A stretch of DNA of 64,000 nucleotides from Microbotryum violaceum. Taxonomy: Eukaryota. Location: contig CDLV01000008.1 of the NCBI GenBank assembly GCA_001244265.2, positions 434,001 to 498,000 on the forward strand, read 5' to 3'. Made by a program: the position numbers and the translations under genes. The notes beneath the pieces are model-generated. The model was not told the DNA's origin and did not search any database. It was given only the letters and a program-made list of their open reading frames with translations. This document shows, piece by piece, positions 8,174 through 60,100 of the stretch. Each line of letters opens with the position of its first letter. The first letter of the stretch is position 1.

Positions 8174-11100
8174 CTACCTCTCCAACAATCTCGCCACTAC
8201 GAACATCTTCAACACCTTCATCATCTCCCCACTCGTGCCGGCTCCTTCCTTAGCCCCTTTCACCCCTCCCAGAGTAGAGGTCGATCTAGCCCCTGCCCGA
8301 TCCAGTATCCCCCCTAGATCGGTCGCCAACTCGCCCGAGATCTCTCTTCGCATCGCGATTGACGCTCGGGTAGGTGAAGGATCCGGTTTGCTCAACCACA
8401 ATGCCAATTGAGACGTCGAGAGCAGCAAGACGCCTTCGAGAGTTTGTGCGGTCGAACTTTGCATCGTTCGCCAGAAGTAAGGCATCAAAGGCGTGATTGA
8501 GCTAGTGGAAGTCGTCGATGACGCGGCGGGTGGCGATTGGCGTAATGTGTCGAGGCAGAATGATGCGAGGTCGAACAGTGTGCCGATCGAGGCTTTCTCG
8601 TTCGAGCTCACCGTAGCGGTCTAAGCGGACGAAACCAGCAAGATTGAATGAGTCTAGCCTCAATTCGGTCATGCAGCGCGGCTGAAACTCACAGGAATGA
8701 CAATCGCTCGATCCGTTCTCCATTCCGTCGGATCCGTCGATAAAACCTTGAAAGCGTTCGTATGCGCGACCAAAGCATCAACAACTCCCCTCGCCAATTG
8801 CAACAAAGCAAGCGTCACGGTCGCTACAACGGGTCGTTTACTCAGGTCCCCATTCGGGTCCACCGACGTCGAAGCATCCTTCTCGATCCAACTTCGTTCT
8901 TCGGGATTGGTGGGCTCGATGAGGTTCGAGAGATGGTTAGGGTGTAGGATCGCGTAAACGATGTGTTGGAGGAGATGGAGGGATTGTTCGGCAAAGATGG
9001 TGGCGAGGGCTTCGATCCCGATTGAACCTTCACGGAGGGATGCGGGCCCTCTCGACCCTTTTTGAGAATCGGCGAGGAACGCAGCTCGTTGGATAACACC
9101 GTGCATCAACGCTGTCGAAATTGCAAGCTCCTCTAATCCTGGAAGACTGATGACCGAATCGGCGTTCCAGCTCATCGCGCAGGCGATCTGTTGGCCATGC
9201 AGACGCACGAAACCCGTGACTTCGACTTCGAAGAATTGAGTCGAATCGCCGAGAGCAGCGATGAGTGCGACGACGAGTTTGAGCATTGAAGTCCACATCT
9301 CGTGTTCGTATGATCGTTGCGAGGAGCCATCACGAGCGGTGATCGAGATCGTGCCTGCTTCGGCTGCAGAGCTGAGGGCGTTATTCGTCAAGGCCGTCAT
9401 CAAACCTTCGAGAGCCATCTGTTCGGCCGCTCGAGCTGACGAAGTGGCTATGGCGAGACAAAGGTCGAGCACATGCTGTGCATACAACGGCCGACCATCG
9501 ATCTGATCCATATGTACAAAGACATCGAAAGCGGCGCGGAAGAAATCGACCTCCTGGCAATGGGCGAGCCATACGCCCGCATGAGGGATGAAGGACGAAT
9601 GTACGAGTTGGGAAAGCACCGCACTCGCAAGCGCGACATCCTGCTCGAGATCGGGATCTTGCGAAGCTCGCGCGATGACGAATAAATCATGCGCGGCAGT
9701 GATCATTGACCTCAGGACGATTTCGGTCGCTCCCGCGATCGTCGATTGTTGTTCCGCCGAAAAGCTCGCTCGATCGGCTCCAGCCAGTTTGCGATAAGCG
9801 AAATAGGCGATACGGAATAAGGTCTGATGGAACATCGGTACATTTCGACGAAGCACAGATTCGAGGGGTTCGAGCGTTTCACTCGAGAAAATCCGACCGA
9901 TCCCATGGATGAGCTTGACAAGCTGTCCCCGAACCTGGTCCAGCTCGAGTCCTTGCAGGACCTCGATCATGATCAAGAGGATCGACAGGCGCTCATCCTG
10001 CACTGTCAAAACGATCTGACCGCCTCGATCCTCTTCGGCAATCGAGCTGGTGACGAGGTCGGCCGCGACGTCCAACACCGTCATTGATGCGGCTCGGTCG
10101 TTGCTGATCAACGGTAATGCCAATTCGAGCAACTGTCTCCATGATCGAGTGTGCGAAATTTGCGCATCAACGAGCGAGAAGTTGAGGTTAAGCTTCCCCG
10201 TCTGCTCAATCACATCACTGAACGCCTCGGGACCCAAATTCGCCGCATTGGCTTCGGACATGAAACCATCCAACCGACGGCGCAAGATCGAAAGCGAGTA
10301 GAGGTACGTCGCGCCGTATTCCCGCGATCCTTCGAGTGGGTGCGATTGAGCGGGCATTCGCAGGGTCTCGATATCGATTTCGGGGAACGACTCGCGCAAC
10401 AAGTCGAAAACGCCACTTTGCAATTGCGGAGCGCACGACGAGTCCATCGCCGTCTGTAGGGCGTTCGATAATTGGGTCTTGTCCGATAGGGCTTTGATTA
10501 ACGCCTTGGCACTCGTCGCAGAAGCGGGTGAAGGTCGTTCGAGGACGACGCCGATATCGAGAGCTAGTACTCGAACGGCATGGGCTTTGGCCATGACTCG
10601 ATGACAGTAATCCCTGACTCCTTGATCATCATCCGGTTCCGACTCGCCAAGACTCTTGAACGCAATTTTGACAAATGCGTTCCATGGTGCAGGTCGACCC
10701 CTGAAGTCATCCAAGGCGTCTCCATAATCGACGAGATGCTGGAAGACGAAATCAAAGAAACGCAACACGCTCGCGAGTAGATCAGGTTGATCAGTCCACG
10801 TCTCGTTCCAAATGCCGATCGTTTCCAGGGCAACGCCCAGAGCCGTGCGAGGTAGAGGTTTGATCGCCGGTGGAGCCAAGGATTTGTACAACGCTCGGGC
10901 GTCTTCTTCGGCCGCCGTCAAGGCCTTGTTCTCTTTGCCTGCGTCGGCTGATTCGAGGAGTTTCGCTTGGTCGCCCTCGATGAAGAAAGGGAAGTGCCGA
11001 CCTGTGACGATGAGAATCGCCAAGCTAGGTTGCGTTTCTACGATCGAAGAGATCTGTAATTAAAACAAGGGCTCGACCTCGGGATCAGCCTCGAGACACT

Positions 11101-14100
11101 CGACATCACTGAAGAAATTCTCAACTCACCATATCCCAAACAGCAACCTGCAACGTCTCCGTCCCCATGGGATTCGCCGCAATCTGCAGCACCTTGTTTA
11201 CCCATTCCTGACTCCTTGTCGCTCCCCCAAGTAAAGCCGTCAAACTCGGTGGTCTCGGCGTCGCGTTTACCGAGCCCAAACACAACAACGTCATCACCTT
11301 TGCTGCTTCGATCGACACCTTGTGATTCAAGGGCGAAACGATGAATTGCGCTAGACATTCGACCCATTCGACTCGGGTGGATTTGGTGGTGCTCCCGCTG
11401 CCGAAAGCGAGGTTCGAAGCTGCTGCGATGGAAAGTCCATCGGTACTGGAAGGCGAAAGGACGAGTTTCTCGAACAATGACGTCGACATCCCTCGGATGC
11501 GTTGGCGGATTCTCAATAGTTTCCGAATGAGGGAGAGTGAGGCAAGGATTAAATCCTCCGAGCCTTGTGCTTCATGGAATCGAATCGCTTTGCGCAAGTT
11601 GATGATGTGGTCCGGACCATTCGAAATGGTCGTGATGAGAGGCATCAACTGCCCGACCGTAGCTCTAAGTAACAACGCATCCAAGACGATCGTCGCGACG
11701 GGTGGGAACTGTCCTTGACTCGCTCCCGACGCCAGTTCACCTTCTTCCAATACGAGCGTGTAGAGTTGCACGATCCTTCGAGCGACCTCGTACTTCTCAC
11801 TAAGGTTCACGAACCTCCAACTCGCATACGAAGGCCACACCTCGTCGCGAACCCAAGCCAATGCGCGGACCAAGACGTCGATTTTGATCTCCTCGAAATC
11901 GGCGCTGATGGCGGCGGAGGTGACCTGTTCCTCGAGAACGAGCGCTCGAACGAGGGACAGCAATGCCAAAGTGATGGGATACTTTCCAGGCAGCCTTTCG
12001 TTCACCAAAATTGAATGCCGTCCTGCTCCAGACCCATCACGGTTCCAGGTGCCACTCGTTGCGGAGCTCGCTTTTGAAGTGGAAGGGAAGAGCAGATCGG
12101 ACCCTCGAAGAAGCGTCCAGCATACCCCAGGGTAGGAGGGCAAGAGCGCAGCGATCAAGCCGAGCAACGAGCTGACCAAACGTGTCGAGACGTCCGATCG
12201 CGAAGGGGTCGACATGACCCGATCAAGGATGCGAAACAAGACCTCGACGAGGTCGTACCTCGGTGCATCGTTCTCTTCATCTGACATCGTGTTTGCCGAT
12301 TGCGGAACGGTGAGATGTTCGACCAGTGTCGTTCCGAGCGACGGATCGTTCTTGAGCATCGCTCGAAAGATGTCCAATACGACGACGACGTCCTCTTCTT
12401 GAGCCTGCTCGTCCTCCCATTCGATCGGTAACGTGTGAGCCGACCTTGTCGCGGAATCATCGCCAAAGACGTCCTCGATCGCCCCGCCGTCCTTTTTCTT
12501 GGGTTGCTGTCGACCCTTCGCTGGGCTCGACTGTCGACGACCCCCCGCAAAGTTTTCGAGGACATCCCCAAACAACCTCCAAGCGGACCATTTGAGATCC
12601 CACTGCACGACGACTGGCTTTTGCCCCTGTTGGCTTACCAACTTGCCCATCACACCCACGGGGATCGATAAACTCCGCGAAAGGACGATCGGTCGAATCG
12701 ATCGATACGTCACGGTGGGGTAAACGGCCACTTCGTAGGGTAAAGGTGTCATCGACGGTGCGGAAGGGACGATGCAAGTCAACGAGTCCAACGCGGCGAG
12801 CCACTCGAAGGCGGTGGCGGCGCATTTGGAAGCCAGTTCTTCGGCCTCTATTGTCGCGCTCGACGTCGCATCGTCTAAAGTGTCGGGTAGCAAGCCCGAG
12901 ACTCCAACGCAGAGCGCTCTGACGATCGAAGCGAAACCCGTGAACTGCACGGGGAACCGGGCTTGGGCTATCGAAATGGTCTCCAGTTCTCCGAGCATCT
13001 GCGTCGTGCGTTCGTCGAAGGTCATCATCATCGACGCATCGGCCGAGGCGTCAAACGCGGAGCGCAGCAATTCGACGCCTTGATCTTGCCAGAATTGAAC
13101 GCAGAGGATCGAAGCAGCGCGGTTTTCGAAGAGCGAGCTGAAGACTTTGAAGTGGGCCGAGAGTTGTTCCGAGGTGAGGAAGGACAGTCGTATCAAGAGC
13201 GGGAGACAGGTGACGAGACCTCGCAGGACGGAAAGATAGCCCACGGCGTTGGGCTCGACCAAATTCGAGGTCGAGGTTGATGAGCCGCCCAGTAAGGACG
13301 AATGGAGGATCGCGAGCAAAGCGGTGAAGAAGCCGGAGCTTGGAGAGAGGGCGTGGGTGGCGTAGAGCTGGAACAAGGGCTGTGCACTCGACGAGGAGGA
13401 GGTGGAAGGTGCTTCGACGCGCAAGGACTGGGATGCAAAGTCGTGGTACGCCTCGGGAACACCTCGGTCGATCAGGAACGCCGTCACTTTGGAGAGCAGG
13501 AACGCCCAGCCCAGCAGAATCGGAGAGGCCCTCTCGGTATCGACCTGTACGAGCGTTTCGACGGCTGCGTTGATGCTCTTGAGGTTGTCGGCGTGGTAGA
13601 TGCTCGTCGTTGGCAAGGGTTTTTCGCCCGGCGCAGGTATCGGAGAGGGAACCTCGATCGCTAGTTCAAGATTGAGCGCTTCAATCGCCAAGATGGTCCA
13701 CAGGTAACCAATCTCGGCGACGATAACGGCCGCCTCCTTGTCAAAGTACCCGAACAAGCTTTGCCGTTGCCCCCACTGCGTCTCGGCGATAGTCTCGAGC
13801 ACGAGCAAGAATATCGGACCGTTGGGAGGTAGGGGCGAGTAAAAGATAAGAAAGACGATCTCGAGCAGCGCTTTCTGTTCGCGCAAGAGTTGCTTTGCCC
13901 AGAACAGGGAGTGGGTCGGGGACGTTCGAACGGCGTCGGGCAGCGCATCGCGTGTCCGCTGGACAAAGGCTCGGAGTATGGACACGGCAAAGTCGGCGGT
14001 GAGGATCGAAGGCAGGAGCCGGGTCGAGAGCTGGTGGACGGCGTTATCGGTATCTGGGTCGTCCTCTGTAGTGTGGGAAGGAAGGAGTCAGCGACCGCGC

Positions 14101-24256: not shown

Positions 24257-25618
24257 TTTTTATTTATTTGATAGACTTCATTAACAGCATAATTCTATTA
24301 ATACCTAGAAATCTTCGGAAAACTCGGAGGGAATGCTGTTACGCACACTGGCAGAAGCCAGTAGTGTAGGACTCATTGACCCTGAACCAGGATAAACCAT
24401 ACCCACTAAAACCCCCTTTGGTGTCTTACAGAGACACTAGGCGACCCTTGGACTCCTGGATAGAGGCTCGAAGCCCCTCGAACTCCGTTTCGGTGATCGG
24501 TTCCAAAAGATCCGACGAGAATCGACGACGGCGACAGAGCTTCCAGATCGAGTGAAAGAAGAGGACTCGTAGTTCGACAAGTCGACGTTCCGAGCGAGAC
24601 ACGACCGGGCATACAAAGTCCACAAAGACTGGGTGGGGGGTCGGGCACAGAGCAGACCAGAGGCGCCGGGCACATGGGCAGCCGACCGCGAGGTGAACCA
24701 GGCACTCGGGTGCTTCCGAGAGGCACATCACACAGGAGGTAGATCGATTGTTGGCATGTGGGCTGGTTGGGGAGGCGACTTGGCTTCCCGGATGGAGGGA
24801 CCCCAGGGAGAGAAGATGGCGGGTATCCTCGGCGTCCGAGTGAACCCGGCGAACCTTGCGCAAAGCCTTCCACCAAGCGTTCCAGCGTTGCTCAGGCAAA
24901 TCGAATACCTTCTGGTGTCCCTTGGGGAAGATAAGGGGGAAGATGAAGACTTGGTGGCGTTTGGACGCGTTCACAAACGAAGACGGGGTCATCACCTCGC
25001 CATCGGGCCCTCGAAAAAGTGTCGGGTTTACCGAGAGTTGTATTCCGTGGCCCGCTGGAAGATGAGTACGTGCGTCGCCCATTGCTCGAGGTTCTGGCTC
25101 TTGGAGAGTTCCGGGGGATTGAGCGTGGTCACCGACGCCCAGGCTTCGAAGTATCGGACCCAACGAGCAGGAAGAAGTTTTGTCGTTTTTCTCACCGCAT
25201 GGTCCCACTTTGGGGGAGGATGGCAAAAGTATGCCCACCAGATCCAAATCCAAGGGCAACGATGCTGGTTGGGGGCCGGTCTGGACAAGGTGAAAGGGGT
25301 TGGCTCGTTTGGTGCCTGGAGGCGGATGCGGATGTCGAAGAGGTGGCGTGTGAAGCAGCCGTCCGGGGCCCGGAGCTCGAAGACCCACTTCGCGTGATCG
25401 ATTGCTAGACGCCGAGGCAGATCAATCAAACCGAAGCCGCCGTGATCAAGAGGGGCGCAGAGGCGCGACCGGGAGACCTTCGGACGTCGCTGAGTACCAT
25501 CCGAAGCTCGACCGTGAATGGCGAGCATGGCGGCCTCCTCGATCTCCTTGACAACGCTCTTGGGGGCGGGAAGGAATCGGCTGTAGTACAAGATCTTTGT
25601 GTAGAAGTAGATGTTGAT
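24257..25618 (-). mobile_element. 5'-truncated non-LTR retrotransposon (LINE) family A, copy 1
   Basis: Post-RT region with GGFGLID and a zf-RVT-type CVMC...HLAVGC zinc knuckle, 3' UTR and A-rich tail. Near-identical to 46886-48248. Flanked by GCCAC at 24252-24256 and 25620-25624 (candidate TSD). Confidence 0.92.
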
Positions 25619-28254: not shown

Positions 28255-31224
28255 ATGTCATCCTCCGCATACAAATTCTCCAACTTGTGCGGGACGATCT
28301 ACTCCAAGGGCAACGTCGTGTACACGCCCGATGGCAACTCGGTTATTTCGCCCGTCGGTAACCGCGTTTCCGTGTTTGATCTGGTCAAGTGAGTGCGCTG
28401 CCTACGGTGTACAAGTGTTCTGAGATCATTCCGCTCACACCACCACCTCACGCATGAACAGCAACAAGTCGAGGACGCTCTCGTTCGAGAATCGCAAGAA
28501 CATTGCCCGGATCGCGCTCAGCCCGGATGCGACTGTATTGCTCAGCATCGATGAAGGCTAGTCATGGCTTAAAGCATCCATCTCACCTCGGGACTCGACT
28601 GACTCGGTCTGTTCTACATTGGTAGATGGGCGTGCTCTGCTCGTCAACTTCAAACGCTCGACGGTCCTGCACCATTTCAACTTTAAAAAGCCCGTACGCG
28701 ACGTGCAGTTCTCGCCCGATGGAAAGTGAGTATGATCGCAAGCATGTGTCTATTTGAAAATTTTGGGAACTGATCTTGATTCTCGCATTTTGGCAGATTC
28801 ATCGCCGCGACGCATGGGTCCCAGGTTCAGGTTTGGCACACACCGTCTCATCTCGCTCGAGAGTTTGCCCCCTTCAATCTCCACCGCGTCTATACCGGCC
28901 ATTATGACGACGTCTTGTCCATCACGTGGAGTTCAGACTCGAGGTGAGCCATCATCGTCGTGTTGAAGTAATGCGCGAACACTGACTTTCTGTGCAACGA
29001 TTTGGGCAGGTTCTTCCTCACCACCTCAAAGGACATGACCGGTCGTCTGTTCACCTTGTATCCCGTTGAAGGCTACCGGCCCAAGACATTCGCTGGTCAC
29101 CGCGATGCCGTACTCGCGGCCTACTTTTCTGCCGACCACAAGACCATCTACACCGTGTCTCGGGACGGCGCCGTCTTCACATGGAGCGCGAAAGAGTCGG
29201 AAGAAGAGTCGGACAAGGAAGACGAAGAACTGCACGACGGACCTAGAATGATCGCTGCAAACGCCCACGCTTCGACCTCGACTTCAGTGATGGGTGTTGA
29301 CAACACGATCGCCACCACCCGATGGGGACTCAAAGATCGCCACTACTTTATGCAAACGGGGACCAAGGTCACCTCGACGACATTTCACTCTCCTTCGAGC
29401 TTGCTTATTGTCGGCTTTTCGAACGGTGTCTTTGGGCTATGGGAAATGCCTCACTTCACTTCGGTACATACGCTTTCGGTGTCGCAAGAGAAGATCACTT
29501 CGGTCGCTGTGAATGCCACGGGCGAGTGGCTTGCTTTTGGCGCGAGCAAGCTCGGCCAATTGCTGGTATGGGAATGGCAGTCCGAGTCGTACGTGCTCAA
29601 GCAACAAGGCCATTACTTTGACATGAACACATTGTCCTTCTCCCCCGATGCGCAAACGGTGGCGACGGGTGGCGACGATGGCAAGGTCAAGCTGTGGAAT
29701 GCGACGAGTGGGTTCTGCTTCGTCACCTTCTCCGATCATTCGTCGTCAGTCTCGGCGGTAGAGTTCGCCAAACAAGGTCAAGTCGTCTTTTCCGCCTCGC
29801 TTGACGGTACCGTCCGAGCCTACGATCTGATCCGATATCGTAACTTCCGGACATTCACCACACCTTCTCCTGTACAATTCAACTCGCTGGCTGTCGATCC
29901 ATCCGGTGAAGTAGTTTGTGCCGGAGGGACGGGCGACGGTTTCGAGATCTACATGTGGTCGACGCAAACCGGCAAACTGGTTGACGTCCTTGCGGGACAC
30001 GAAGGTCCTGTCTCGGCCTTATCCTATTCACCTCTCGGAGATCGACTCGTCTCGGCCTCGTGGGACAAGTCGATCCGAGTATGGGACGTGTACGGAAGAA
30101 GTTCCGCCGTCGAACCGTTTGCCTTGAAAGCCGATGCTTTGGCATTAGCCTTCCGACCCGATGGGCTGGAAGTGGCCGTCTCGACTTTGGACGGCCAGAT
30201 CGTCTTCTGGGATGTGCGCAACGCTTTGCAACGCACGTTGATTGAAGGGCGCAAGGACATTGCGGGGGGAAGGAAGGTTGACGATCGAGTTACCGCGGTC
30301 AATAACGCGTCAGGCAAAGCTTTCACTTCACTTTCTTACACGGCTGATGGAGCATGCTTACTCGCGGGAGGTAACTCGAAGCATGTCTGCTTGTACGATG
30401 CGCGCGACGGTGTGCTCTTGAAGCGGTTCGAGATTTCGCAAAACCTTTCCTTGGACGGGACGCAAGAATTCCTCGATTCGCGCAATTTGACCGAAGCCGG
30501 ACCGAGGGAGGCGATGGATGATCGAGGCGAGAACTCGGATCTTGAAGATCGCCTCGACAAAACATTACCGGGTGCTCGAGCGGGCGATATGTCGAAACGC
30601 AAGTACCGACCTGAAGCGAGGACGAAATGCGTTCGCTTTTCACCGACGGGAAGAAGTTGGGCCGCGGCGTCGACGGAAGGGTTGTTGGTGTATTCGTTGG
30701 ACGATACGATATCGTTCGATCCTTTCGAATTGGATATCGACATCACACCCGAGACAATCAACGATACGTTGAGATCGGATAGGAATTTCCTCAAGGCGCT
30801 GATCATGGCTTTGCGATTGAACGAACCGGGTCCACTTCGTACGGTGTACGAAGCGATTCCTCCTAATGAGATTTTGTTATTGGCGACACAACTCCCTCCG
30901 CATCATGTAGAGAAGACGCTTGCCTTGATCGCTCGTCAGATGAGCGAGACGCCGCATGTCGAGTACCACTTGCTGTGGGTCAACGGTATGTTTGATGCCC
31001 ATGGGAGATCACTGCAGGCCGGTGCGGGAGCACACGCAGCGACGTTCCGAGCACTCCAAAAGGGCTTGCTGGACGTCCAGGACAACGTCGTGAAGAGCGT
31101 GGAGGAGAATCGCTACACTTTGGCGTACTATCTGGACCAGCTCGAGCGGAGAAGGAAGGAGGAGATGGAAGAGGAAGAGGGAGGAGACATCGGCGAGTAC
31201 GCGACGAGGATGATCGAGGTGTGA
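28255..31224 (+). CDS. PWP2: Periodic tryptophan protein 2 (Utp1), SSU processome WD40 protein, multi-exon
   Basis: YKFSNLCGTIYSKGN, LGQLLVWEWQSESYVLKQQGH, AYDLIRYRNFRTFT and AAASTEGLLVYSLD. Confidence 0.97.
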
Positions 31225-34774: not shown

Positions 34775-37700
34775 TCAGATCATCGACCTCACCCCACTCG
34801 CACTTCGCCCAACCTCGGTCACACCCGAGACGGCACAGACCGTGCCCGAATACCTCGCGTGATATCGACTGCCCGTGAATGGGTCCTCGACCGCGGCGTC
34901 GTTGGCGTAGATCGGTGTCAAAGAAGCGGGACACACGTCGAATTGAGCATGCAGGTCGTACGCGATCTCGATCGCATCTCGCGGGCTCTTGTTCGCCGTC
35001 GAGAGCACATTCTTGGCCTGCGTCGCCACCGTAGCCGCAGGCTGCAGGTCGAGCAGCTTCTGGGCGAACGTTGCCGCGGTCGGGTAGTTCTTGGCCTTGA
35101 CAAATGTCGCCATTGCCAAACGCAACGCGAGCAGGAGATGTGCTGGCTGGAGTCGGCAGTGCGTGAAGTAGGCGGCCAATTCGAGTTGCCGCTTCGTGTT
35201 CTCTGGCGAGGGGCCGAGCTTCTCGACGCGTCGTCGCTCGATCTCGAGCGCAAGACCGACGAGATATTCGCGGCAGATGACAACAAGTTCTTGCAGCTCC
35301 GCCGCCTCGCCTGGTGTTGATGTCACGACGAAAAGCAACGAGTGCAAGATCGAGCGGAATGCCGCCGCGGACTCGGGGAACTTGGCCTTTTGGAATAGGA
35401 GGTACGCGTTGCGCAACTCGCCCGAGGTGATGCTTTGCAGCGTCAGCGTCGCCGCGGGAAGGACCGAACGAGGCTCGGCGTTGTCAAGGTTTCGTCGCAA
35501 CGGGATCTGCAACGGCGGCAATGACGGCGCTGACGGCAAGTACAGCCTCGAGGATTGGAACAGCGACAAGAACAGCGGCTTGAGCGGCGCAAAGTGAACG
35601 GCGCCAACCTGTCGGTTGAGCAAGCCCATCGCCGTCTCGAACGAACCGGCAGCGACATGGTCGGCCGCAAGGGGCGAGTTGCGCACCCACAGCTCGTCCT
35701 CGGGGATGCCGGGTACAAGTGGTCCAGCCGAGTCGTCGTCGGCGCCACCTGCGGGTGTGAGAACACCCGAGCCGCCCAAAAGGTCCTCGTCTCCGATTAC
35801 GCCATCGTCATCACCGTCCGCGCCATCGAGATCCCATGCTTCTGCTGCTTCCTCGGCCGCAACTCCATCGGTGGCCATGGGTTCAGGCTCGATCTCACCC
35901 GCAGCCCACGAGTCAAGGCCGCGATCACCCGCATCGCCCTCGTAATCGACCGCCGAAGGCTCGCCGTTCGCGGCGGCGGCGAGAGCGCGATCAAAGAAGC
36001 TCTCGGTGACGCCAACCGAAGGCCAGTTGTGCTCGAACGTCGGCACAATGACCGGCGGGGGGCGCAATGTCGAGCGCTTGATCGGTGGGACGACACCGGC
36101 CACATCCTCCTCGGTCAGGCCGGCGGCTGTCAGGACCTCTTGCGCGAGCTCCTCAAGTCCGTTCGTCTTGGCCGTCATGTACGCCAGGGGAAAGAGGCCG
36201 ACTTCGCGGAGAATGGCGATTCGAGCCTCGACGTTGCCGAGGTACAGCGCGTTGTGGAAGCGCGACATTTGGTCGCCACGCATCTCGGCGATCTTGGACA
36301 TCTTGCTGAGTTTCTCGGGGTGGCCCGTGATGAGGTAAAGGAACGACAAGCGATCGAAGTTTTTGGTGCGCTGGTAAGCAATCTCGACGATCTGAGCGAA
36401 CATATGAAGGAGGTAAGGTCAGCATCGACCGCCCTGCAATGATCAGCTTGCAAGCCCACGACAACATACCTTGTGGTGACCCTGCTTGAGTGCTTGTTGG
36501 CCCAACCTGGCCCAAATCTCCTCCCGTTCGAGGGCCTTGGCCATCTCAAGCGCGACGTCGAGGTTGCCGCATTCGATCGCCAAGTCGACCCGTGTCGTCT
36601 TGTCCTGCACAAAGTGCAAGGCGATCTCGGGGAAGCCTTTCTTCTGCAGGTATGCGATGATGCTCTGGCCGACAAGGTTCGACGTGCGGATGATGTGCAG
36701 CACCTCGTCGTAGTTCTTCCTCATCAGCGCGAGCTTGAAGCGGTACTCGGTCGGGTCGATCACGATCGCCCTCGGCTTGGCGTTCCGGTCGAGGCAGTGC
36801 ACGACCTTGCCCTTGACGTGCGTCAAGTAGACGGGTTGTTCCAAGGTCTTGATGATGCCGTTGTCCCCTTGCGGAAGGGCGTACTTGATGTGGTTCAAGG
36901 TCGAGTAAATGAAGATGCCCGAATCGTCCCAGGCACCGGACTTGATGCGGATCGTCTCGTGGACCATCGCCGACTGGCCGAGCGTCTTGTTGGCGATCAT
37001 GATCGTGTGCTTGGACAGGAGTGCGACCATCGTGTTGTCGTTGGACCACACGACGTACTTGACGAGAGGCGTCGCGAGCTCGGCGATGATCTTTTGCTGT
37101 TGGATGTCGAAGAGGACGACGCTGGCTGGGCACGAGAGCAACAACGAGGCCGTTCCTCCAAAGAAGATGTCGTTCGTTTGCACGGGACACTTGATCGTCT
37201 TTGTGATCGAGTTCTCGAGGTCGCGGATCTCGATCGTCTGCGCCGTCTTGTCGAGCACGGCGAGGCGATTGCGAGCTACGAATAACGCCGACGAACCCGT
37301 ACCTCGGCGACCTTCGGAAGCCGAGTCGCGCACTTCACCCGACCCCACATCCTTGGGCAAGTGCACGAGCTCGTAGAGCCCATTGTCGGCAGGACTGGTG
37401 ACGATCACCGCTCGCTCGGCGGGGTTGTAGCTCAGCGTGCGCGGTTGCACGAACTGACTGCCGAGGCGTCGAACGCTGATGACACTGGCATCGGACCCGG
37501 TGGTGAAGTCATGCGCTCGCACGAACTTGTCGCGAACGTAGAACAAGGTGTTGCCGTGCACGCTGAACGCCGGTCGCTCACGGTCGAGCTTGAAGACGAT
37601 CAAACCCGAATCGTGACCGGCGGCGAACAGGTTCAACTCGGGGTGGGCCGTCAGGACCCAGAAGCGATCGTTCTCGCGGCGGAAGGTCTGCACCGCCGTG

Positions 37701-39154
37701 CGCTTGCTCAAGTCCCAAACGCGGATGGTCTTGTCTTCCGAGTCGGAGATGATGAGCTCGTGCTTGGGGTGGAAGAGCGCGACCGAGACGTTGTTGAAGT
37801 GACCACGGCACGTGTCGACCTCCCACGCTTTGGTATCGCTCATTCGCCACAGCTTGATCTGACGATCGTCACCGCACGAAACGATGAGGGGCATTGTGGG
37901 GTGAAAGGTGGCCCAGTTGACACCTCGATCGTGGCCTTCGAGCACGTACTTGACGACAGCGTCGGTGTTGCCGAATAAGTCGGCCTGGCCCGAGTTGGCG
38001 CGCTGGATCTGTTCCTCGAACGAGAGAGGCTGTGCGGTCGTGTTCTTCTTGCGCAGACCTGTAGTTCGCGCAGACGTAGCTCAGATTAATGAGCTTGATC
38101 GCATTACTCAGCGCCTGAGAAGCACCTACCCGAGATATCCCAGACTCGAACAGTTTGATCCATCGAGGCCGAGACGACATAATCCTCCTTGGGGTGGAAT
38201 TGAGCGCACCTGGAGGAAACGTGCCGAAGGGGATAGAGTCAGTAGTTTGCAAGTGGAATTTTTGCCCCGGAAGAGTGCCGAGCGCTTACATGATGTAGTG
38301 GTTGTGGCCGGTCAAGATGGCGATGCATTGACGCGATTGCCAGTTCCAGATGCGAATCGTCTGATCGTCCGAGGCCGAGAGGATCCACGGGTGTTCGTGA
38401 TGGAAGTAGACGGAGCGAACATAGTCCAAGTGGCCGTGCAGGGTAAAGAGACACCGACGGGTCTTGTAGCTGTAGGCGACGGGTGAGGAGGTGATCAGCC
38501 AGGCGGAAGCAGCGCCGGCAGTGCACTACAGTCCGAGACTTACTTCCAGACCTTGATTTTGTAGTCGTCACCTCCCGAGCAGAACAGCGGCTGAGTCGAA
38601 TGGAACGAGATGCCTCGTACTGGTCCTGTTGGAGGTGAGGTGTATTCCGGGGCGTGGGAGGAGGGGGGGAACGAGCCAGAGCCCGCGCGAGACGGGGGGG
38701 AGGGGGCGACAGGTAGACAAAAAAGCAAGGTCAAGCAGGTCAGCCTTCGGTTCGACTAGGAACGAAACAAGGACTAGTGTTCCCAGAGATTCAACCATCT
38801 CGTCGTGGTTCGAGATATGTGGAGGTTTGGCTGAGGAGGTGTGCGCCCAGCAAGGACACGCGTGTTGGAACGCGAGAGCTCCGAGCGTCGAATCGCTTGT
38901 CGGCGTGAACGGTTTGAAAGGAGAACTGACCGTCGTGCTCCTCGAACCTGTCTACGAGCACGCCCATCTGGAAGTTCCATAGCTGGATCGAGCCCGAATG
39001 GAGGGAGGCGGCCAAAAGCGTGAGCCGGGGGTGGAACGCGATGCCCTTGACTCTGTTGGACTTGGACTCGAACTGCGGCACCAAGCAGAGATAGGGTTAG
39101 GACCAGTTCCCATGGACAAAGGTTCTCATGGCTGACCTTTGTGAGCATCTGCAT
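34775..39154 (-). CDS. COP1: Coatomer subunit alpha (alpha-COP), multi-exon
   Basis: [59 protein letters not shown] and [14 protein letters not shown]. Confidence 0.98.
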
Positions 39155-42734: not shown

Positions 42735-43077
42735 GCTCAGCTACTAGACCGTGTGCCAGAAGTGACTGGCAACGGGCAAAAAAAGGAAGACGGCGCGCCA
42801 TCGTGAGCTGCCGTACTCGAGTCTCTCCTAAGTGTTGCCTCGACTGGTTGCCAAAGGCGACTAATCATCGGGGCCCATGGGCGCGCGTAGCAAGTCGCAA
42901 GGCAAGTGCGATGTCCACCACACTCTTTGTACTAGGACTAGGTAGCTTGGCATGCTCACACCATCCCCTATTGCTGGTAACATCGGGTCCCCACCCATGT
43001 CCATGGAGTTGCCTGCGAAGGAGAAAAAGCAAGAAAGAAGATAGCAAAGACAAAGGAAACATAGAAAACTATGAGGA

Positions 43078-43078
43078 A

Positions 43079-43119
<41 letters not shown>

Positions 43120-43139
43120 AAAAAAGAAAGAAAGAAAAA

Positions 43140-43206
<67 letters not shown>

Positions 43207-43212
43207 GAAAGG
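43078..43212. repeat. (AAAG)n microsatellite / pure polypurine tract, about 135 bp
   Basis: About 30 AAAG units with two AAAA interruptions, read directly. Confidence 0.97.
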
Positions 43213-43714
43213 AAAGCAAGAAGAAAGCAGGGAAAGAACTTGAACTTGAAGGAACGAAGGCAAGACGACACAGGATGTACATGGTCATAATACTTTCTCC
43301 GTTGCATAACTTCCAAATTAAATTTGGTGTTTTGCGATGTAGTCAGCCCACCTACACCAGGAGCATGTAGATATGGATTGCCTAAGCTTGAGAAACAGGA
43401 GGGCGCCGGTCGCACAAGTTGCAGCGGCCTGACTTCAAAGCCTTTTCAAAGCTTGGACAGCAGTGTTGAGAGCAATGTAAAAACAAGCTTCAAAGATGGG
43501 TAGTACAAGAAAAGCCCTGCAGATCACAAGAAGCAACTTTCACAGAAACTATGCGAAGGTCTCACCGTGGTTGGAGCTCCAATTGGCTAGAGAAAGGCCC
43601 TATTTCGGGGGAGGTATAGTATATTTGGGACGCAATCAATAGCGCCATGGACCGTGCAGAGGCGGCACTTGAAGGCCGATGAGCGGAATGATGCTACAAA
43701 GCATGCATAACACG

Positions 43715-46150
43715 TCATTTTGACACCTCTGATGACGAAAGTGCTGACTGAGATACGAGCTTGGCAAGGTTCCAATCGATCAAACACAGGGAGCCGTCAT
43801 CCCGTAGCAAAACATTGTCGCGCCTCAAATCTCCGTGATCGATCCCGAGTCGAGCGAACATTTGAACTGCTTGGCTTTAGGACCCACGCCACACAGACGT
43901 TCAACACCTGTCAATCTGATGTGAGAAGCCGGCGTGAGCTCAGATGCCAGCGCTTTGATCACTCACCGAACTTTATCGTCGAATTCTGGGACGAGATCAG
44001 AATCTCTGATCTGTCGTCCACCATATTCCATCACAAGAGCAATGGACCGAGACGGCCCAGCTTGGAGATAGGTCCCGTAGTACGAGGGGAGGAGCTTCCG
44101 AGCCTCTTTGGGTAGAAGAGGAAAAACGTGCTCGTAGAAGAGAGACTCCCGGATGCCCGCCCCCAGTCCATCGAAGACTTTGATCACCATCGGTGTATCC
44201 GTCGGCATCACCTTATGCTGCGGAATGGGCTCAGACTTGGTCGAATCAAGGCCAGCGAGTAGGCGTGGTGCTATATGCTATACCCGCTTGAACCGACTTG
44301 TTCGAACGTTGAGAGGGGCTGCCGGCGGGTGCCTTCGTACGTAGTTGACCTCCGTAAGCAGAGCCATATCCACCGATAGCGAGGAGTTGCGGTATCCCAA
44401 TCTGCGGTAACGATCGCAAGTCGCACCTATCCAGCACAGAAAGTGATGCTCTAAGAAGTGGTGAGCGCCCTTCATCATCATAAAGCTCGCGGGAGAGATA
44501 TTCTAGCAAAGCGGGAGAAAGGCGTTTCAGGCTAAGCGTTGTTTTGAATTCAGACATGTTCACAGGCGGTTCGTTGGGAATTGATGTTTCGCTGAGCTTG
44601 AACGCGACCGCCTCGAAAGGGTCTAATTGGTCCGACGAATGCTCCCAGACGAAAGCGATCTGTATCTGCGCATGTAGCCGGCGCCCAGCACATGAAGATC
44701 AGTCAGCTAGCAAGCGTTCCGTCGAGTTGGTGGCAGTACGCCGAAAGAATGAGCATCTGCCACTGGATCTTGTAGCATACCGAAGCTACAGACGTGTCCA
44801 GCATCACTTGTACAACGTGACCACCCGTGCGCCAGAAGTCCTCAGCAGTGATGGTGGTGGCTGTGATGTTGCCTTCGCGCCCCGGGTACGCCGTCTTTTT
44901 GCCCGCGGTGAATCAGAAGCTTCCTGTGCATCGACTGCGCACTCAGCTCCGACTGCTCCGACGGTTCGGTCCAGCTCCTGCGGGTCACTTGAATGTGCGA
45001 ACAGTAGTTGAAGCGCTTCGGGTGAGGGGGGCGCTGCTGTTGCGATATGGTCAATACCAGCGGCGAGGAACATAAGCGCGACGGATATGAAATCGAATAG
45101 GAATGGCTCCTGAAGGGGGATTGGGGGGCGTCGTGAGGCGGTGGTGTAGATGCGCGAGTACAAGATCCCCATCTCTTGAGAGTTTTGGGGGTTTACAACT
45201 AGCGTACAGGATCATGCAAGAGGGAATGGCGCGTAAGTTCCTTTTTCTACGCTGCCACGGATTGCCAGTCTAGCTCACCAGCTTCGGCCAAGATGACGAA
45301 ATGAGAGCTGATCATCATGCCGAATCGTACCGGGACTTCCACCTCACCCGTCTTGTCATTTCTTTCATTGGCCGATTCCATGAGAAAAGCCAGCTGTGTT
45401 GGCATTGGTGTCAAACAAGAAAGCTCGGGTTGGCATACAATATAAGCTGTAGTAGGGCATGGTGTGTTCGACGGACCTTGTTCAACATCGCCTGCGCGCC
45501 ATGGCTCCTCTTTCCGAGATCCAGAGGGATCGGACCATTATGATGGAGATGAAACTTGCACTCGTCGTCGCGCGCAAACAAATTCGGTTGAGCACCGTTA
45601 GACATGAAGGACGCGTCCTCCTCAAGGATAATCGAAAAGCGAAACAAGCACGTTCCGTTGCCTCTCATTAGGGCAAGCGTGATCCCGGGTGGATGAGAAC
45701 GTGGTGGAGCCTCGAAGCGAAGGTAGTACGGGCTGTTGGGTCGCTGTCTCGTATTGGAGTCGCCAATTGAATCGTAGTACCGCTTCAACACGAATAGGAG
45801 CAAAGGTGCTAGAACGCGTATGCGCAGGTCGTGGATCGTTGCGGTGCATTCGGGACTGTTGGTGCACACGATCCGACCGCAAGGTCGGTCCGACCGGAGT
45901 AGCCTACCGACCTCGTCGTGCACTTCCTCCATCAATTTGCTCTCGTCGAGAAAGTTCTCGAGTGATCCTCGAAGTCGTGGCTCGAGTGAATCGTCCAGCA
46001 TTGCTGCAACAGGTCGTCGCCAGTTGAAGCCAACGGCGGGGGCTCGAAAGGAAGACCGCCTCCGCGAAGGTCGAAGCAATCTGGCCCGTCACAGGGTGCG
46101 TGGTTGATGTTGTCCTTCTCGAGAAAGAGCCCCAGGTGCGATCGGAACAT
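43715..46150 (-). CDS. Atypical protein-kinase-like protein with C-terminal kinase fold, multi-exon; 5' part possibly disrupted
   Basis: Spliced exons give LAIGGYGSAYGG (Gly loop), VIKVF...RESLFYE, LVMEYGG, IDHGDLRRDNVLL (catalytic loop) and LIDWN (DFG equivalent), then stop at 43715. Upstream ORFs of 122 and 222 aa lie on the same strand. Confidence 0.7.
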
Positions 46151-46166
46151 GTGTCGAGCTCAGTGG

Positions 46167-46219
46167 TGTTGGTATCAACGATGATCCCGAAATGATCAAC
46201 AAAAGAAGAAGAACGACTG
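46167..46219 (-). repeat. 3' fragment (last 53 bp) of the tRNA-bearing LTR, inverted
   Basis: Reverse complement reads CAGTCGTTCTTCTTCTTTTG...ACCAACA, matching the LTR 3' end at 46323-46375. Confidence 0.92.
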
Positions 46220-46256
46220 TGTTGAAGGTGTTAGTAGACCTTGCACTGATATCAGG

Positions 46257-46327
46257 GGCCGGATAGCTTAGTGGTCAAAGCTTTTCCGATTAATGGAAGC
46301 GACCCAGTTTCGACTCCTGGTCCAGCC
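46257..46327 (+). ncRNA. tRNA-like element in the 5' LTR (B box with one substitution)
   Basis: A box TAGCTTAGTGG; B box GTTTCGACTCC versus consensus GGTTCGANTCC; cloverleaf stems; downstream TTTT. Confidence 0.75.
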
Positions 46328-46660
46328 GTTCTTATTCTTTTGTTGATCATTGCGGGATCATCGTTGATTCCAACATGGTAGCGTCTGTCGGTTAATAAGA
46401 GAAAAGGGGCGGCTGTCTCCGAACCATGCTGTAGAGCAAGATGCCAAAGCAAGGTTCTAAGGGGAAGTGTGAGGATCTATTATAGAACCTTTCATGTGAA
46501 TCTTTCCAATGACGCTGCACAAAGTTACCGGAGCTGCCGCAGAAGCTTGACACAGAGTCCAATTTAGACTTAGAGTCGACGCATTGCAATAGCCTGGCAG
46601 CAGTGCAAAGGTCTAAGGGGAAGTGTTGAAGGTGTTAGTAGACCTTGCACTGATATCAGG

Positions 46661-46731
46661 GGCCGGATAGCTTAGTGGTCAAAGCTTTTCCGATTAATGG
46701 AAGCGACCCAGGTTCGACTCCTGGTCCAGTC
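46661..46731 (+). ncRNA. tRNA-like element in the 3' LTR (intact A and B boxes)
   Basis: GGCCGGA-TA-GCTT AGTGGTCA AAGC-T-TTTCC GATTAAT GGAAG-CGAC-CCAGG TTCGACT CCTGG-TCCAGTC folds as a cloverleaf with a non-canonical anticodon loop. Confidence 0.8.
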
Positions 46732-46884
46732 TGTTGGAATCAGCGATGATTCCGAAATGATCAACAAAAGAAGAAGAACGGCTGAACCAGGAGTCGAACC
46801 TGGGTCGCTTCCATTAATCGGAAAAGCTTTGACCACTAAGCTATCCGGCCCCTGATATCAGTGCAAGGTCTACTAACACCTTCA
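46732..46884 (-). repeat. Nearly complete inverted copy of the tRNA-bearing LTR (first 3 nt absent at the LINE junction)
   Basis: Reverse complement of the 46220-46375 LTR with few substitutions. Contains a tRNA-like unit at 46780-46850 (-). Confidence 0.93.
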
Positions 46885-46885
46885 G

Positions 46886-48450
46886 TTTATTATTATTTGA
46901 TAGACTTCATTAACAGCATAATTATATTAATACCTCGAAATCTTCGGAAAAGTCGGAGGGAATGCTGTTACGCACACTGGCAGAAGCCAGTATTGTAGGA
47001 CTCATTGACCCTGAACCAGGATCAACCATACCCACTAAAACCCCCTTTGGTGTCTTACAGAGACACTAGGCGACCCTTGGACTCCTGGATAGAGGCTCGA
47101 AGCCCCTCGAACTCCGTTTCGGTGATCGGTTCCAAAAGATCCGACGAGAATCGACGACGGCGACACAGCTTCCAGATCGAGTGAAAGAAGAGGACTCGTA
47201 GTTCGACAAGTCGACGTTCCGAGCGAGACACGACCGGGCATACAAAGTCCACAAAGACTGGGTGGGGGGTCGGGCACAGAGCAGACCAGAGGCGCCGGGC
47301 AAATGGGCAGCCGACCGCGAGGTGAACCAGGCACTCGGGTGCTTCCGAGAGGCACATCACACAGGAGGTAGATCGATTGTTGGCATGTGGGCTGGTTGGG
47401 GAGGCGACTTGGCTTCCCGGATGGAGGGACCCCAGGGAGAGAAGATGGCCCGTATCCTCGGTGTCCGAGTGAACCCGGCGAACCTTGCGCAAAGCCTTCC
47501 ACCAAGCGTTCCAGCGTTGCTCAGGCAGATCGAATACCTTCTGGTGTCCCTTGGGGAAGATAGGGGGGAAGATGAAGACTTGGTGGCGTTTGGACGCGTT
47601 CACAAACGAAGACGGGGTCATCACCTCGCCATCGGGCCCTCGAAAAAGCGTCGGGTTTACCGAGAGTTGTATTCCGTGGCCCGCTGGAAGATAGAGTACG
47701 TGCGTCGCCCATTGCTCGAGGTTCTGGCTCTTGGAGAGTTCCGGGGATTGAGCGTGGTCACCGACGCCCAGGCTTCGAAGTATCGGACCCAACGAGCAGG
47801 AAGAAGTTTTGTCGTTTTTCTCACCGCATGGTCCCACTTTGGGGGAGGATGGCAAAAGTACGCCCACCAGATCCAAATCCAAGGGCAACCATGCTGGTTG
47901 GGGGCCGGTCTGGACAAGGTGAAAGGGGTTGGTTCGTTTGGTGCCTGGAGGCGGATGCGGATGTCGAAGAGGTGGCGTGTGAAGCAGCCGTCCGGGGCCC
48001 GGAGCTGGAAGACCCACTTCGCGTGATCGATTACTAGACGCCGAGGCATATCAATCAAACCGAAGCCGCCGTGATCAAGAGGGGCGCAGAGGCGCGACCG
48101 GGAGACCTTCGGACGTCGCTGAGTACCATCCGAAGCTCGACCGTGAATGGCGAGCATGGCGGCCTCCTCGATCTCCTTGACAACGCTCTTGGGGGCGGGA
48201 AGGAATCGGCTGTAGTACAAGATCTTTGTGTAGCAGTAGATGTTGATGATCGAACACTTGGCTGCATATGGGAGATCGTACATCGGAATTGAGCGTATCC
48301 GAGCGATGGTCGAGGCCTTGACATCTTCCCAGCCCGCATCCTCGGCGATCTCCACCCCGACCTGAATACCAAGGTAGCGAAACTGCGAATCGCTGAGACG
48401 CCAGGTCCCGAGATCTGGGGCGAAAAGTGGAGGACGGTATGACCGAATAG
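46886..48450 (-). mobile_element. 5'-truncated LINE family A, copy 2
   Basis: End of RT (QFRYLGIQ), GGFGLID, CVMC...HLAVGC, the same 3' UTR as 24257-25618, and a (TAA)n-like tail. Confidence 0.92.
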
Positions 48451-51281: not shown

Positions 51282-51882
51282 TTGTGGGTTAAGTGGGTCG
51301 GAGTGGTTTTCACGTGGTCCGAGTCAAAGCTCAGAGCGCTCAAGAGCACCCGGGCGGTCATTCGCTGGTCAATGGTCACTAATGACTGAAGTTGCAATAG
51401 TCGTACTTACTACTGACTTTGTCGGATGGTTCAGGGGTTAAGCCTTTCGGTCAGTCCTGATCAGAATCAAGCGACAAGTGGGGGCGATGAGTGCAAGACA
51501 CGAGGAGAGAGAAAGAGATGTCATGTGCCAAAGGCAGTTGAAGCTGCCAGCGTCATCAGTGCAGCGTCAACTCGCCGATGGCTCGTCTCGGCGATGCGGG
51601 CATTAGCGCATTAGCGCATTAGCGGCGCGGCGGGCGGTGGGCGGCGGCTGGTACCGGCTGGTGCTCACGCGCTCAATTACAGTCTTGCCAAAGCTCGCCA
51701 AAGTCCCAGCCGAGCCAGGCCGAGCCTGCGCAGCCGAGCCCAGCCGCCGCCGCCCTTCTCGGCTTCTGTTTGACAACCCCGCGCCAGGTGTAGACTGCCC
51801 ACCGACCCGTACACGACTCTTCACAGATTCTCGTCTCGAGACTGTGGGTGATTGTCTCGCCAGGAGAGGGTAGTTGGATTGG

Positions 51883-58122: not shown

Positions 58123-60100
58123 ATGAGCACCAACGCAGCAGGAGTAGTCTATGTGGCACCCGCACAACAGACCGCCTACGTGCTCTGTGCTGGTACGTAC
58201 TTCTCTAAATTCTTCTCGACATCTAGCGCCACAGCCGAGCCGAGCTGAGCTGAGCTGAGCTGAGCTAACCAATATGACTTTCCAAACATGATACGTCAAA
58301 CAGACTGCGGTACACCAATCGAGCCAAACAATGCCAATCTCTGCGTCAACTGCTTGAGGAATGCGTGCGTTACTCCCTTCGAGCCTTTGGTCTCGCCGAA
58401 GATTCGTTCCGACTCCCGAGTGCTGATCTTGCATCCGCGACTTTCCCAATAGCGTCGACATCACCGAAGGCATCCCGAAACAGACGAGCATCAATTTTTG
58501 CAAAGGATGCGACCGGTACCTGTCCCCACCGACGACGTGGACCATTTGCCAGCTCGAATCGAGGGAGTTGCTCGCCATCTGCCTGCGTAAGCTCAAGGGG
58601 CTCAGTAAAGTGCGCCTCATAGACGCCGGCTTCATCTGGACCGAACCCCATTCGAGGCGATTGAGGGTCAAGTTGACCATCCAAAAAGAGGTAATCAACA
58701 TTTCAGCTTTCAGCTCACCATATGAACCCCCCGCTGACCTCATGGCGATCTCACCCCAGGTCTTCACCTCGACGATCCTGCAACAAATCTTCGAGGTCGA
58801 GTACGTCGTACAAGGTGCCCAGTGCCCCGAATGCACCCGACTGGCCGCCAAAAACACCTGGCGTGCCTTGGTCCAGGTTCGACAAAAGGTCGACCACAAG
58901 CGAACCTTCTTGTACCTCGAACAGCTCATCCTCAAGCACAACGCCGACAAGGACACCATCTCGGTCCAAGAGGTCAAGGATGGGCTCAACTTTTTCTACT
59001 CGACCAAGCAACACGCTTTGAAGATGGTCGACTTCCTTGGTGCCATTGCTCCTGTCCGGTAAGTTATGCACCACAGTTATATTCGTGTGGGCCACGCTTT
59101 TGCTGACCCCTCAGAACCGCCTCTCCTCAGAGCCAAGACCTCGGAACAGCTCATCTCGCAAGACATTCAGAATTCGACCACCAACTCGAAATTGACCTAC
59201 TCGGTCGAGATTATTCCCATCTGCAAGGATGACGTTGTGTGCTTGCCTCGCAAAGTCGCCTTGGCCATGTCCAACATCTCGCAACTCGTCGTCTGCCACC
59301 GAGTTGGGAATCAGATCTACCTCATCGACCCTCTGACCTTGACCCTCGGCGATATATCCAGTTCGGTCTACTGGCGAGCGCCATTCAGTCCCCTGGCCGA
59401 TATCACTCAGGCGACCGAGTTCATCGTACTCGACATTGAGCCGACGTCGCACCCACCCAAGACGGCCAAAGGCGGTCGTTTCCTCCTCGCGGATGCCCAA
59501 GTCTCCCCCGTCGGCGGATCGATGAACAGCGACGTCATCTTCCATACCCGAACCCACCTCGGTGCCGTTCTCAAACCGGGAGATACCGTGCTCGGATATA
59601 TGCTCGGATCATCCAACTTCAACAACGACGCATGGGAAACGATGGACCAGTCGAGGGCTCCCGAAGTCATCTTGGTGAGGAAGACGTACCCGAACCGAAG
59701 AAAGAAGTCCAAGGCGCGTGGGTGGAAGCTCAAGTCGATGGTCAAGGAGGTCGGTGGTGCTTCGCTCGAAGGCGCCGACACGATCGGGTTGGGTCGTGAG
59801 AAATCCGAAGGCAGGAAGAGTCGTGGCGCCGGTGCGGCCGAACATGCCAAGGCCGAGGCCGACTACGAGAGGTTCTTGCGCGACATCGAAGAGGACGAGG
59901 AGATGCGTCAGACCTTGCGCTTGTTCAAAGACCCCAAGGCGGTGCAACAGCAGGAGAACGAGATGATTGAAGAGTCGGATTTCGAGGACGCCGAAGACGA
60001 CTTCCCCGAGATCAACGTCGATGACTTGTTGGATGATATGGAAGGCCTCAACATTGAGCCGGACGAAGAGGACGATGCTGGTATGGAACCTGATCAGTAG
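58123..60100 (+). CDS. NMD3: 60S ribosomal export adaptor Nmd3, multi-exon
   Basis: CADCG...CVNC, LESRELLAICLRKLKGL, DAGFIWTEPHSRR, VQVRQKVDHKRTFLYLEQLILKH and an acidic NES tail. Confidence 0.97.

Follow-up and report, generated by a model that had tools for sequence, protein, structure and literature searches.

TRIMs whose LTRs contain a tRNA-derived sequence are known as Helenus elements, for which insertion of a SINE2 into an LTR has been proposed as the origin (Kojima 2024, PMC10886601). According to the available text of that survey, their fungal families are found in Pucciniales and in a few Agaricomycetes, make 5-bp target duplications, and are often predicted as suppressor tRNAs, being probably not functional tRNAs (PMC10886601). 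Their transcription by Pol III is described in the same text as not validated, and that of the Cassandra elements is said to begin in the module of the 5' LTR and to finish in that of the 3' LTR (PMC10886601). Outside Pucciniales, the available text reports that none were found, "including Microbotryum, Leucosporidium, and Rhodotorula", in a screen that started from similarity to the Helenus consensus sequences then known (PMC10886601); such a similarity-seeded screen could miss a diverged small family. For the host genus, the available portion of the M. lychnidis-dioicae genome paper lists LTR and LINE elements with 0 SINE copies, and the word TRIM is absent from that portion. Across the accessible parts of the Microbotryum literature that we searched, no TRIM, tRNA-bearing or non-autonomous LTR element of such kind is reported.

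Here we describe, in a 64-kb window of Microbotryum DNA (the whole stretch that was analysed, with a GC content of ~55%), a short element that we assign to Helenus/TRIMp3 by the published description of this class. The locus is best explained, and in our view with good probability, by a Helenus/TRIMp3-type TRIM at 46220-46784 that is nested in an oppositely oriented solo LTR of its own family, and whose last 58 bp are inverted (Table 1). Within its host lineage the element is new and runs counter to the published absence, while its class is already in print, as the preliminary description of this DNA had thought possible.

Table 1. Features of the nested TRIM, its host solo LTR and the adjoining LINE, by position in the window
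Feature	Positions	Strand	Evidence or remark
Host solo LTR, distal 53 nt (LTR positions 156-104 on + strand)	46167..46219	-	
5' LTR of nested element, 156 bp, TGTTG...CAACA	46220..46375	+	repeat search, alignment
tRNA-like module 1	46257..46328	+	ARAGORN; Rfam RF00005 42.2 bits
Interior, 248 bp	46376..46623	+	without long reading frame
PBS-like TGGTAGCGTC	46376-46385	+	directly 3' of 5' LTR
PPT, purine run AAGGGGAAG	46615-46623	+	abuts next LTR copy at 46624
3' LTR of nested element, proximal 103 nt	46624..46726	+	with tRNA-like module 2
tRNA-like module 2	46661-46732	+	intact B box GGTTCGA; Rfam tRNA 45.7 bits
Second target-duplication copy, as CAGTC (reverse complement of GACTG)	46727..46731	.	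within inverted 58 bp
3' LTR of nested element, distal 53 nt, inverted relative to its remainder	46732..46784	-	
tRNA-like module 3	46779-46850	-	46779-46784 plus host-LTR part; Rfam tRNA 46.9 bits
Host solo LTR, proximal 100 nt (LTR positions 103-4)	46785..46884	-	
3' part of predicted non-LTR retrotransposon (LINE, APE-type)	46886..48247	-	A/T-rich tail at 46886; outside the element

The architecture of the locus departs from the intact 512-bp unit (46220-46731), bounded by two 156-bp LTRs with TGTTG/CAACA ends, that had been described previously. These LTR dimensions hold for 46220-46375, whereas the direct repeat on the 3' side covers only 107-109 bp (46623-46731). Two further pieces of the same LTR had also escaped notice when only two copies were counted, namely a third copy, inverted at 46732-46884 and sharing 96% identity with the first across 153 nt, and an inverted piece of 53 bp at 46167-46219. 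The latter begins with TGTTGG, ends with the target site GACTG (46215-46219) and shares 92% identity with the other two copies of the same LTR part. In place of the 512-bp unit, we recognize a nested element of 560 bp, made of two 156-bp LTRs and the 248-bp interior, or of 565 bp when the flipped duplication copy is included. Self-BLAST detected no further copy of the LTR or of the interior elsewhere in the window.

Denoting LTR positions 1-103 as T and positions 104-156 as S', with S and T' as the reverse complements of S' and T, the + strand reads S, T S', interior, T, CAGTC, S, T'. The length bookkeeping is exact, the 718 bp of 46167-46884 being equal to 3 x 156 - 3 + 248 + 5. The last 3 nt of the host solo LTR are absent at its junction with the LINE, and the 5 extra bases are accounted for by GACTG at 46215-46219, whose reverse complement stands at 46727-46731. 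Un-flipping 46727-46784 restores a complete 156-bp 3' LTR followed by GACTG, and hence a direct 5-bp duplication, which is visible only once these 58 bp have been un-flipped and is a single instance, from this locus. At its fourth base, the duplication copy CAGTC bears the T variant of the host LTR, where the LTRs of the nested element have C. Between its 5' and 3' LTRs, the nested element shows differences at 5 of 156 positions, 1 of them in the proximal 103 nt and 4 in the distal 53 nt.

From this arrangement, we propose that a TRIM copy integrated into an opposite-oriented solo LTR of its own family and duplicated GACTG, which would have set inverted LTR arms of 103-108 nt at a distance of 48-58 bp from each other. 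The segment 46727-46784, composed of the 53 bp that end the 3' LTR and of one duplication copy, would then have ended up inverted, either by recombination between the arms or through a short-read assembly unable to orient a 58-bp piece. Were the inversion such an assembly artefact, the real locus would be a simple nested insertion flanked by direct 5-bp duplications. We consider this unlikely, while noting that the 103-nt arms on either side of the piece are 99% complementary, that short reads could not orient this piece, and that none of the contigs compared with the locus spans 46727-46784. No direct evidence counters this artefact, which would alter the history of the locus only and leave the identity of the element untouched. 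The same order of segments, an inverted 5-bp duplication and a 565-bp spacing of the 53-bp segments would also be predicted if a reverse-transcribed copy had integrated with inversion into its own 3' LTR, giving a 565-bp circle that later recombined with a solo LTR via the 53-bp segment. Such a route is highly improbable, as it needs a rare circle and recombination over a mere 53 bp, whereas nested insertion followed by a flip involves ordinary steps only and also accounts for the host variant found in the duplication. The insertion of an inverted copy into the 3' LTR of a direct element was rejected, since it needs a large rearrangement without end repeats.

The host solo LTR displays no duplication of its own, because the LINE abuts it and removes its last 3 bases. 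Searching for this missing end together with the expected duplication returned one 8-nt match at 51474-51481 (ACAAGTGG), which corresponds to the missing last 3 bases of the host LTR plus the 5 bases to the left of the host LTR. This match may lie at the far end of the LINE insertion or be due to chance, its context being unconvincing and its single occurrence being near the chance expectation of ~0.09. Regarding the nested copy, it is probably dead, because the B box of its 5' LTR is mutated and its 3' LTR is rearranged. Separately, the 103-nt inverted arms of 46627-46884, with a spacer of 52 nt between them, form a long hairpin that could yield double-stranded RNA if transcribed.

Each of the three LTR copies contains a tRNA-like module spanning LTR positions 38-109, reported by ARAGORN as a "tRNA-Stop (tta)" gene in all three cases and scored by the Rfam tRNA model at 42.2-46.9 bits, for a gathering score of 29 bits. 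A cloverleaf had previously been drawn at LTR positions 38-108, and its likeness to a tRNA is borne out by these covariance-model scores; the cloverleaf itself rests on the covariance-model alignment and not on the minimum-free-energy folds of the three modules, which gave none (z-scores of -0.4 to -1.1). This alignment contains 2 non-standard pairs in 46257-46328, located in the acceptor and T stems, and 1 non-standard pair, in the acceptor stem, in two copies. The A box TAGCTTAGTGG, at 46264-46274 in the 5' LTR, was correctly identified in the earlier work along with the T-run downstream (TTTT at 46338-46341). It is present in all three window copies, in which TAGCT..TGG agrees with the Helenus box A pattern TRGCY...YGG. 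The B box GGTTCGACTCC proposed at the same time is found in copies 2 and 3 and had to be amended for the 5' LTR, where 46307-46317 reads GTTTCGACTCC, with a mutated GTTTCGA instead of GGTTCGA. Box B GGTTC thus occurs in two of the three window copies, as well as in 10 contigs of a public run (X1, see below). In addition to the TTTT located 10 nt past module 1, a second run is present inside this module at 46282-46285.

At the anticodon position, module 1 carries the triplet TTA within the loop GATTAAT. In tRNAs, U33 is near-universal, and this loop has an A at the corresponding place. Considering these features, a local cluster of three true tRNA genes or pseudogenes of suppressor type (TTA), duplicated and inverted, is very improbable in our view, as is its variant as a foldback element with 53-bp inverted ends around a tRNA gene. 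Rfam scores above the threshold would be expected from tRNA genes, and the 53-bp arms at 46167-46219 and 46323-46375 that flank module 1 would suit a foldback element. The A at the U33 place and the acceptor-stem mismatch nevertheless argue against tRNA genes, as do the fixed TG...CA ends of a repeat unit that reaches 37 nt upstream and 47 nt downstream, and the concentration of the variation between copies in the anticodon arm, which holds 5 of the 13 variable sites listed in the module among contigs. Against a foldback element, a dispersed copy matches 46220-46375 only, and not 46167-46375. Among the same 13 sites, 2 fall in the A box and 3 in the B box, one of the latter being 46308, at which the window copy itself has T and 10 contigs of X1 have G; this hints at a conservation of the promoter boxes among copies. 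From its sequence, the module is therefore a tRNA-derived one with no credible working tRNA in it. At loose thresholds, the Rfam search of the locus returned only the three tRNA matches and sub-threshold matches of microRNA type, the latter because of the long hairpin, and no ribozyme.

The short region between the LTRs conforms to the earlier account in its PBS of initiator-Met type abutting the 5' LTR, in its PPT abutting the 3' LTR, and in its 248 bp without coding capacity, for which no long reading frame was found. The sequence TGGTAGCG(TC) starts at 46376, directly at the end of the 5' LTR, and 46376-46385 is the sole occurrence of TGGTAGCGTC in the window. This putative PBS would pair with a tRNA 3' end ...CGCUACCA, of initiator-Met type. 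An A1:U72 pair is typical of eukaryotic initiator tRNAs, and the U preceding ACCA in this predicted 3' end fits such a pair. The tRNA-like module of the LTR was ruled out as the primer, because no exact complement of at least 6 nt was found between the PBS region and the LTR. The 248-bp interior contains no T4 run, for a chance expectation of only ~0.6. It also repeats the PPT and the LTR start, 46449-46470 being identical to 46605-46626 at 20 of 22 positions; this internal repeat may be what is left of an older LTR boundary, or a second site for plus-strand priming.

From what is established about LTR elements and type-2 Pol III promoters, and from the argument of Kojima, a replication cycle can be outlined for this family. 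The A and B boxes would recruit TFIIIC and Pol III, with transcription starting near LTR position 38, and the transcript would have to run through the 5' LTR and stop within the 3' LTR in order to give a terminal repeat. A tRNA ending with ...CGCUACCA (tRNA-iMet) would prime reverse transcription, and a Copia-type element would copy and integrate the RNA in trans, its integrase making the 5-bp duplication. We infer Pol III transcription, a small tRNA-mimic RNA, a tRNA primer and a Copia-type helper from this general knowledge. The TTTT runs within the module and 10 nt after it would disfavour long Pol III transcripts if T4 terminates here, and the mutated B box of the 5' LTR counts against the use of the 46220-46784 copy by Pol III.

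The neighbouring sequence allows another origin of the tRNA-like unit to be weighed. On the minus strand, the 331-aa frame at 47055-48050 has its matches in the C-terminal portions of 48 Microbotryum proteins, each of at least 581 residues; of these proteins 40 contain RVT_1 (PF00078), 9 of the 40 having the endonuclease domain PF03372 as well. Pfam scans and PDB sequence searches with the LINE frames gave weak zf-RVT matches only. A second copy, 5'-truncated and 98% identical to 46886-48247, lies at 24259-25618 on the minus strand, and the two copies of the window have a common A/T-rich end and differ at the other. LINE copies are typically 5'-truncated. Because the frame matches RVT_1/PF03372 proteins and the copies differ at their 5' end, we identify 46886-48247 as a LINE on its predicted protein and copy structure. 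Over the LINE regions, the summed depth of public contigs amounts to hundreds of times the single-copy depth.

With the 3' end of this LINE located 35 nt from module 3, and with a tRNA-like head bearing A and B boxes, the unit could be taken for a tRNA-derived SINE mobilised by the adjoining LINE, with no LTR element involved. This appears scarcely credible to us, since the unit lacks both an A-rich or LINE-like tail and any similarity to the LINE, and since it displays TG...CA ends, the order LTR-PBS-interior-PPT-LTR and a 5-bp duplication. Moreover, the other LINE copy (24259-25618) has no such unit alongside. The remainder of the window includes ordinary fungal housekeeping genes with long exons, encoding Nup188 (8669-14087), an Utp12-type WD40 protein (28972-31224), coatomer alpha (34775-38080) and NMD3 (59063-60100). 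Within the coatomer gene, the frame at 34775-36418 shows 100% identity to a protein attributed by NCBI to Microbotryum lychnidis-dioicae, a species with which the GC content of the window also agrees. A ~100-nt unit is also repeated in tandem at 43017-43238, with ~75% identity.

To situate this TRIM beyond the window, 45700-47300 was compared with the Logan contigs of four public runs, among which X1, X4 and X12 are DNA runs registered under three organism codes, with unique left-flank depth baselines of 220, 5.8 and 27, respectively. Relative to this left flank, depth over four LTR bins (46186-46401) was 15-48x in X1, 15-33x in X4 and 9-41x in X12, and depth over the interior bins 7.7-26x, 3.5-15x and 6.4-22x, summed contig depth being distinct from copy number and these values being orders of magnitude only. 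Over the interior, the contig depth was uneven and higher across 46456-46563. The LTR family is thus present in runs under three organism codes; in two metagenome scans, the LTR patterns had 0 matches.

Individual contigs revealed how these copies end. One contig of 3839 nt and single-copy depth has a match bounded exactly by 46220 and 46375, in which there are 17 differences and 1 gap. Contigs with unlike flanks leave the LTR at 46375 in X1 (7 contigs), X4 (5) and X12 (5), and more of them leave it at 46167 (3-4 contigs) and at 46732 (4), these three positions being the same LTR end, so that some contigs may have entered more than one count. Contigs of 104-123 nt at 6.4-7.7x single-copy depth contain the end of the interior with 27-29 nt of the 3' LTR, an LTR overlap shorter than the 31 letters required by our bridging rule. 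Two further records, one in X4 and one in X15, do bridge interior and LTR. The latter run, only guessed to be RNA, says nothing on expression, because the depth of the element in it resembles that of low-coverage DNA of a multi-copy family. Altogether, these contigs suggest that the family is small and dispersed, that its LTR ends are fixed, and that it comprises a few full-length copies and more solo LTRs. The structural reading of the locus as a TRIM is strengthened by the 5-bp duplication and by the apparent dispersed copies in public contigs that share the same LTR ends.

These results extend the range of Helenus/TRIMp3 to Microbotryomycetes and correct a negative that the available text of the survey derives from a similarity-seeded search. 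They also indicate that predictions of "suppressor tRNA" in such genomes can be LTR fragments. The element reveals no new mechanism, and the locus stands as a compact and fully accountable case of self-nested insertion with a flip between inverted LTR arms. Taking the observations together, we tentatively envisage, at slightly less than even confidence, a small Pol III-type TRIM lineage of Microbotryum's own, distributed across several anther-smut species, of older or independent origin and subject to hairpin silencing. Either TRIMp3 would be older in Pucciniomycotina than the rust order, for which the available text gives ~130 million years (PMC10886601), or a tRNA-derived module would have been captured independently, in a genome without annotated SINE. 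The 103-nt inverted LTR pair could produce a hairpin RNA that feeds the silencing of the family. If this joint reading is true, Microbotryum would possess its own TRIM lineage where the sole survey of the class, in its available text, reported none.

Compared with known systems, the element resembles tRNA-derived SINEs (SINE2) in its tRNA-like head with A and B boxes and in its short, non-coding sequence. It differs from them by having LTRs, a PBS and a PPT, all three of which are missing from SINE2, which rely on LINEs. Like Cassandra as characterized in the available text, it is a non-autonomous LTR element whose LTR holds an internal Pol III promoter that originates in the gene of a small RNA, a promoter that is predicted here. 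Unlike Cassandra, which has a 5S rRNA module, resides in plants and has demonstrated Pol III transcripts, it has a tRNA module, belongs to a fungus and is known here from sequence. The closest likeness is with Helenus, with which it shares two LTRs enclosing a PBS and a PPT, the 3' LTR being complete only after un-flipping 58 bp, as well as a short non-coding body and a tRNA-derived LTR module with box A and box B. As in fungal Helenus, its target duplication is of 5 bp, in the one instance (GACTG) available here. From the Helenus families described in the available text, it is distinguished by its Microbotryum host, by a family that looks small, and by a copy that is nested and partly inverted.
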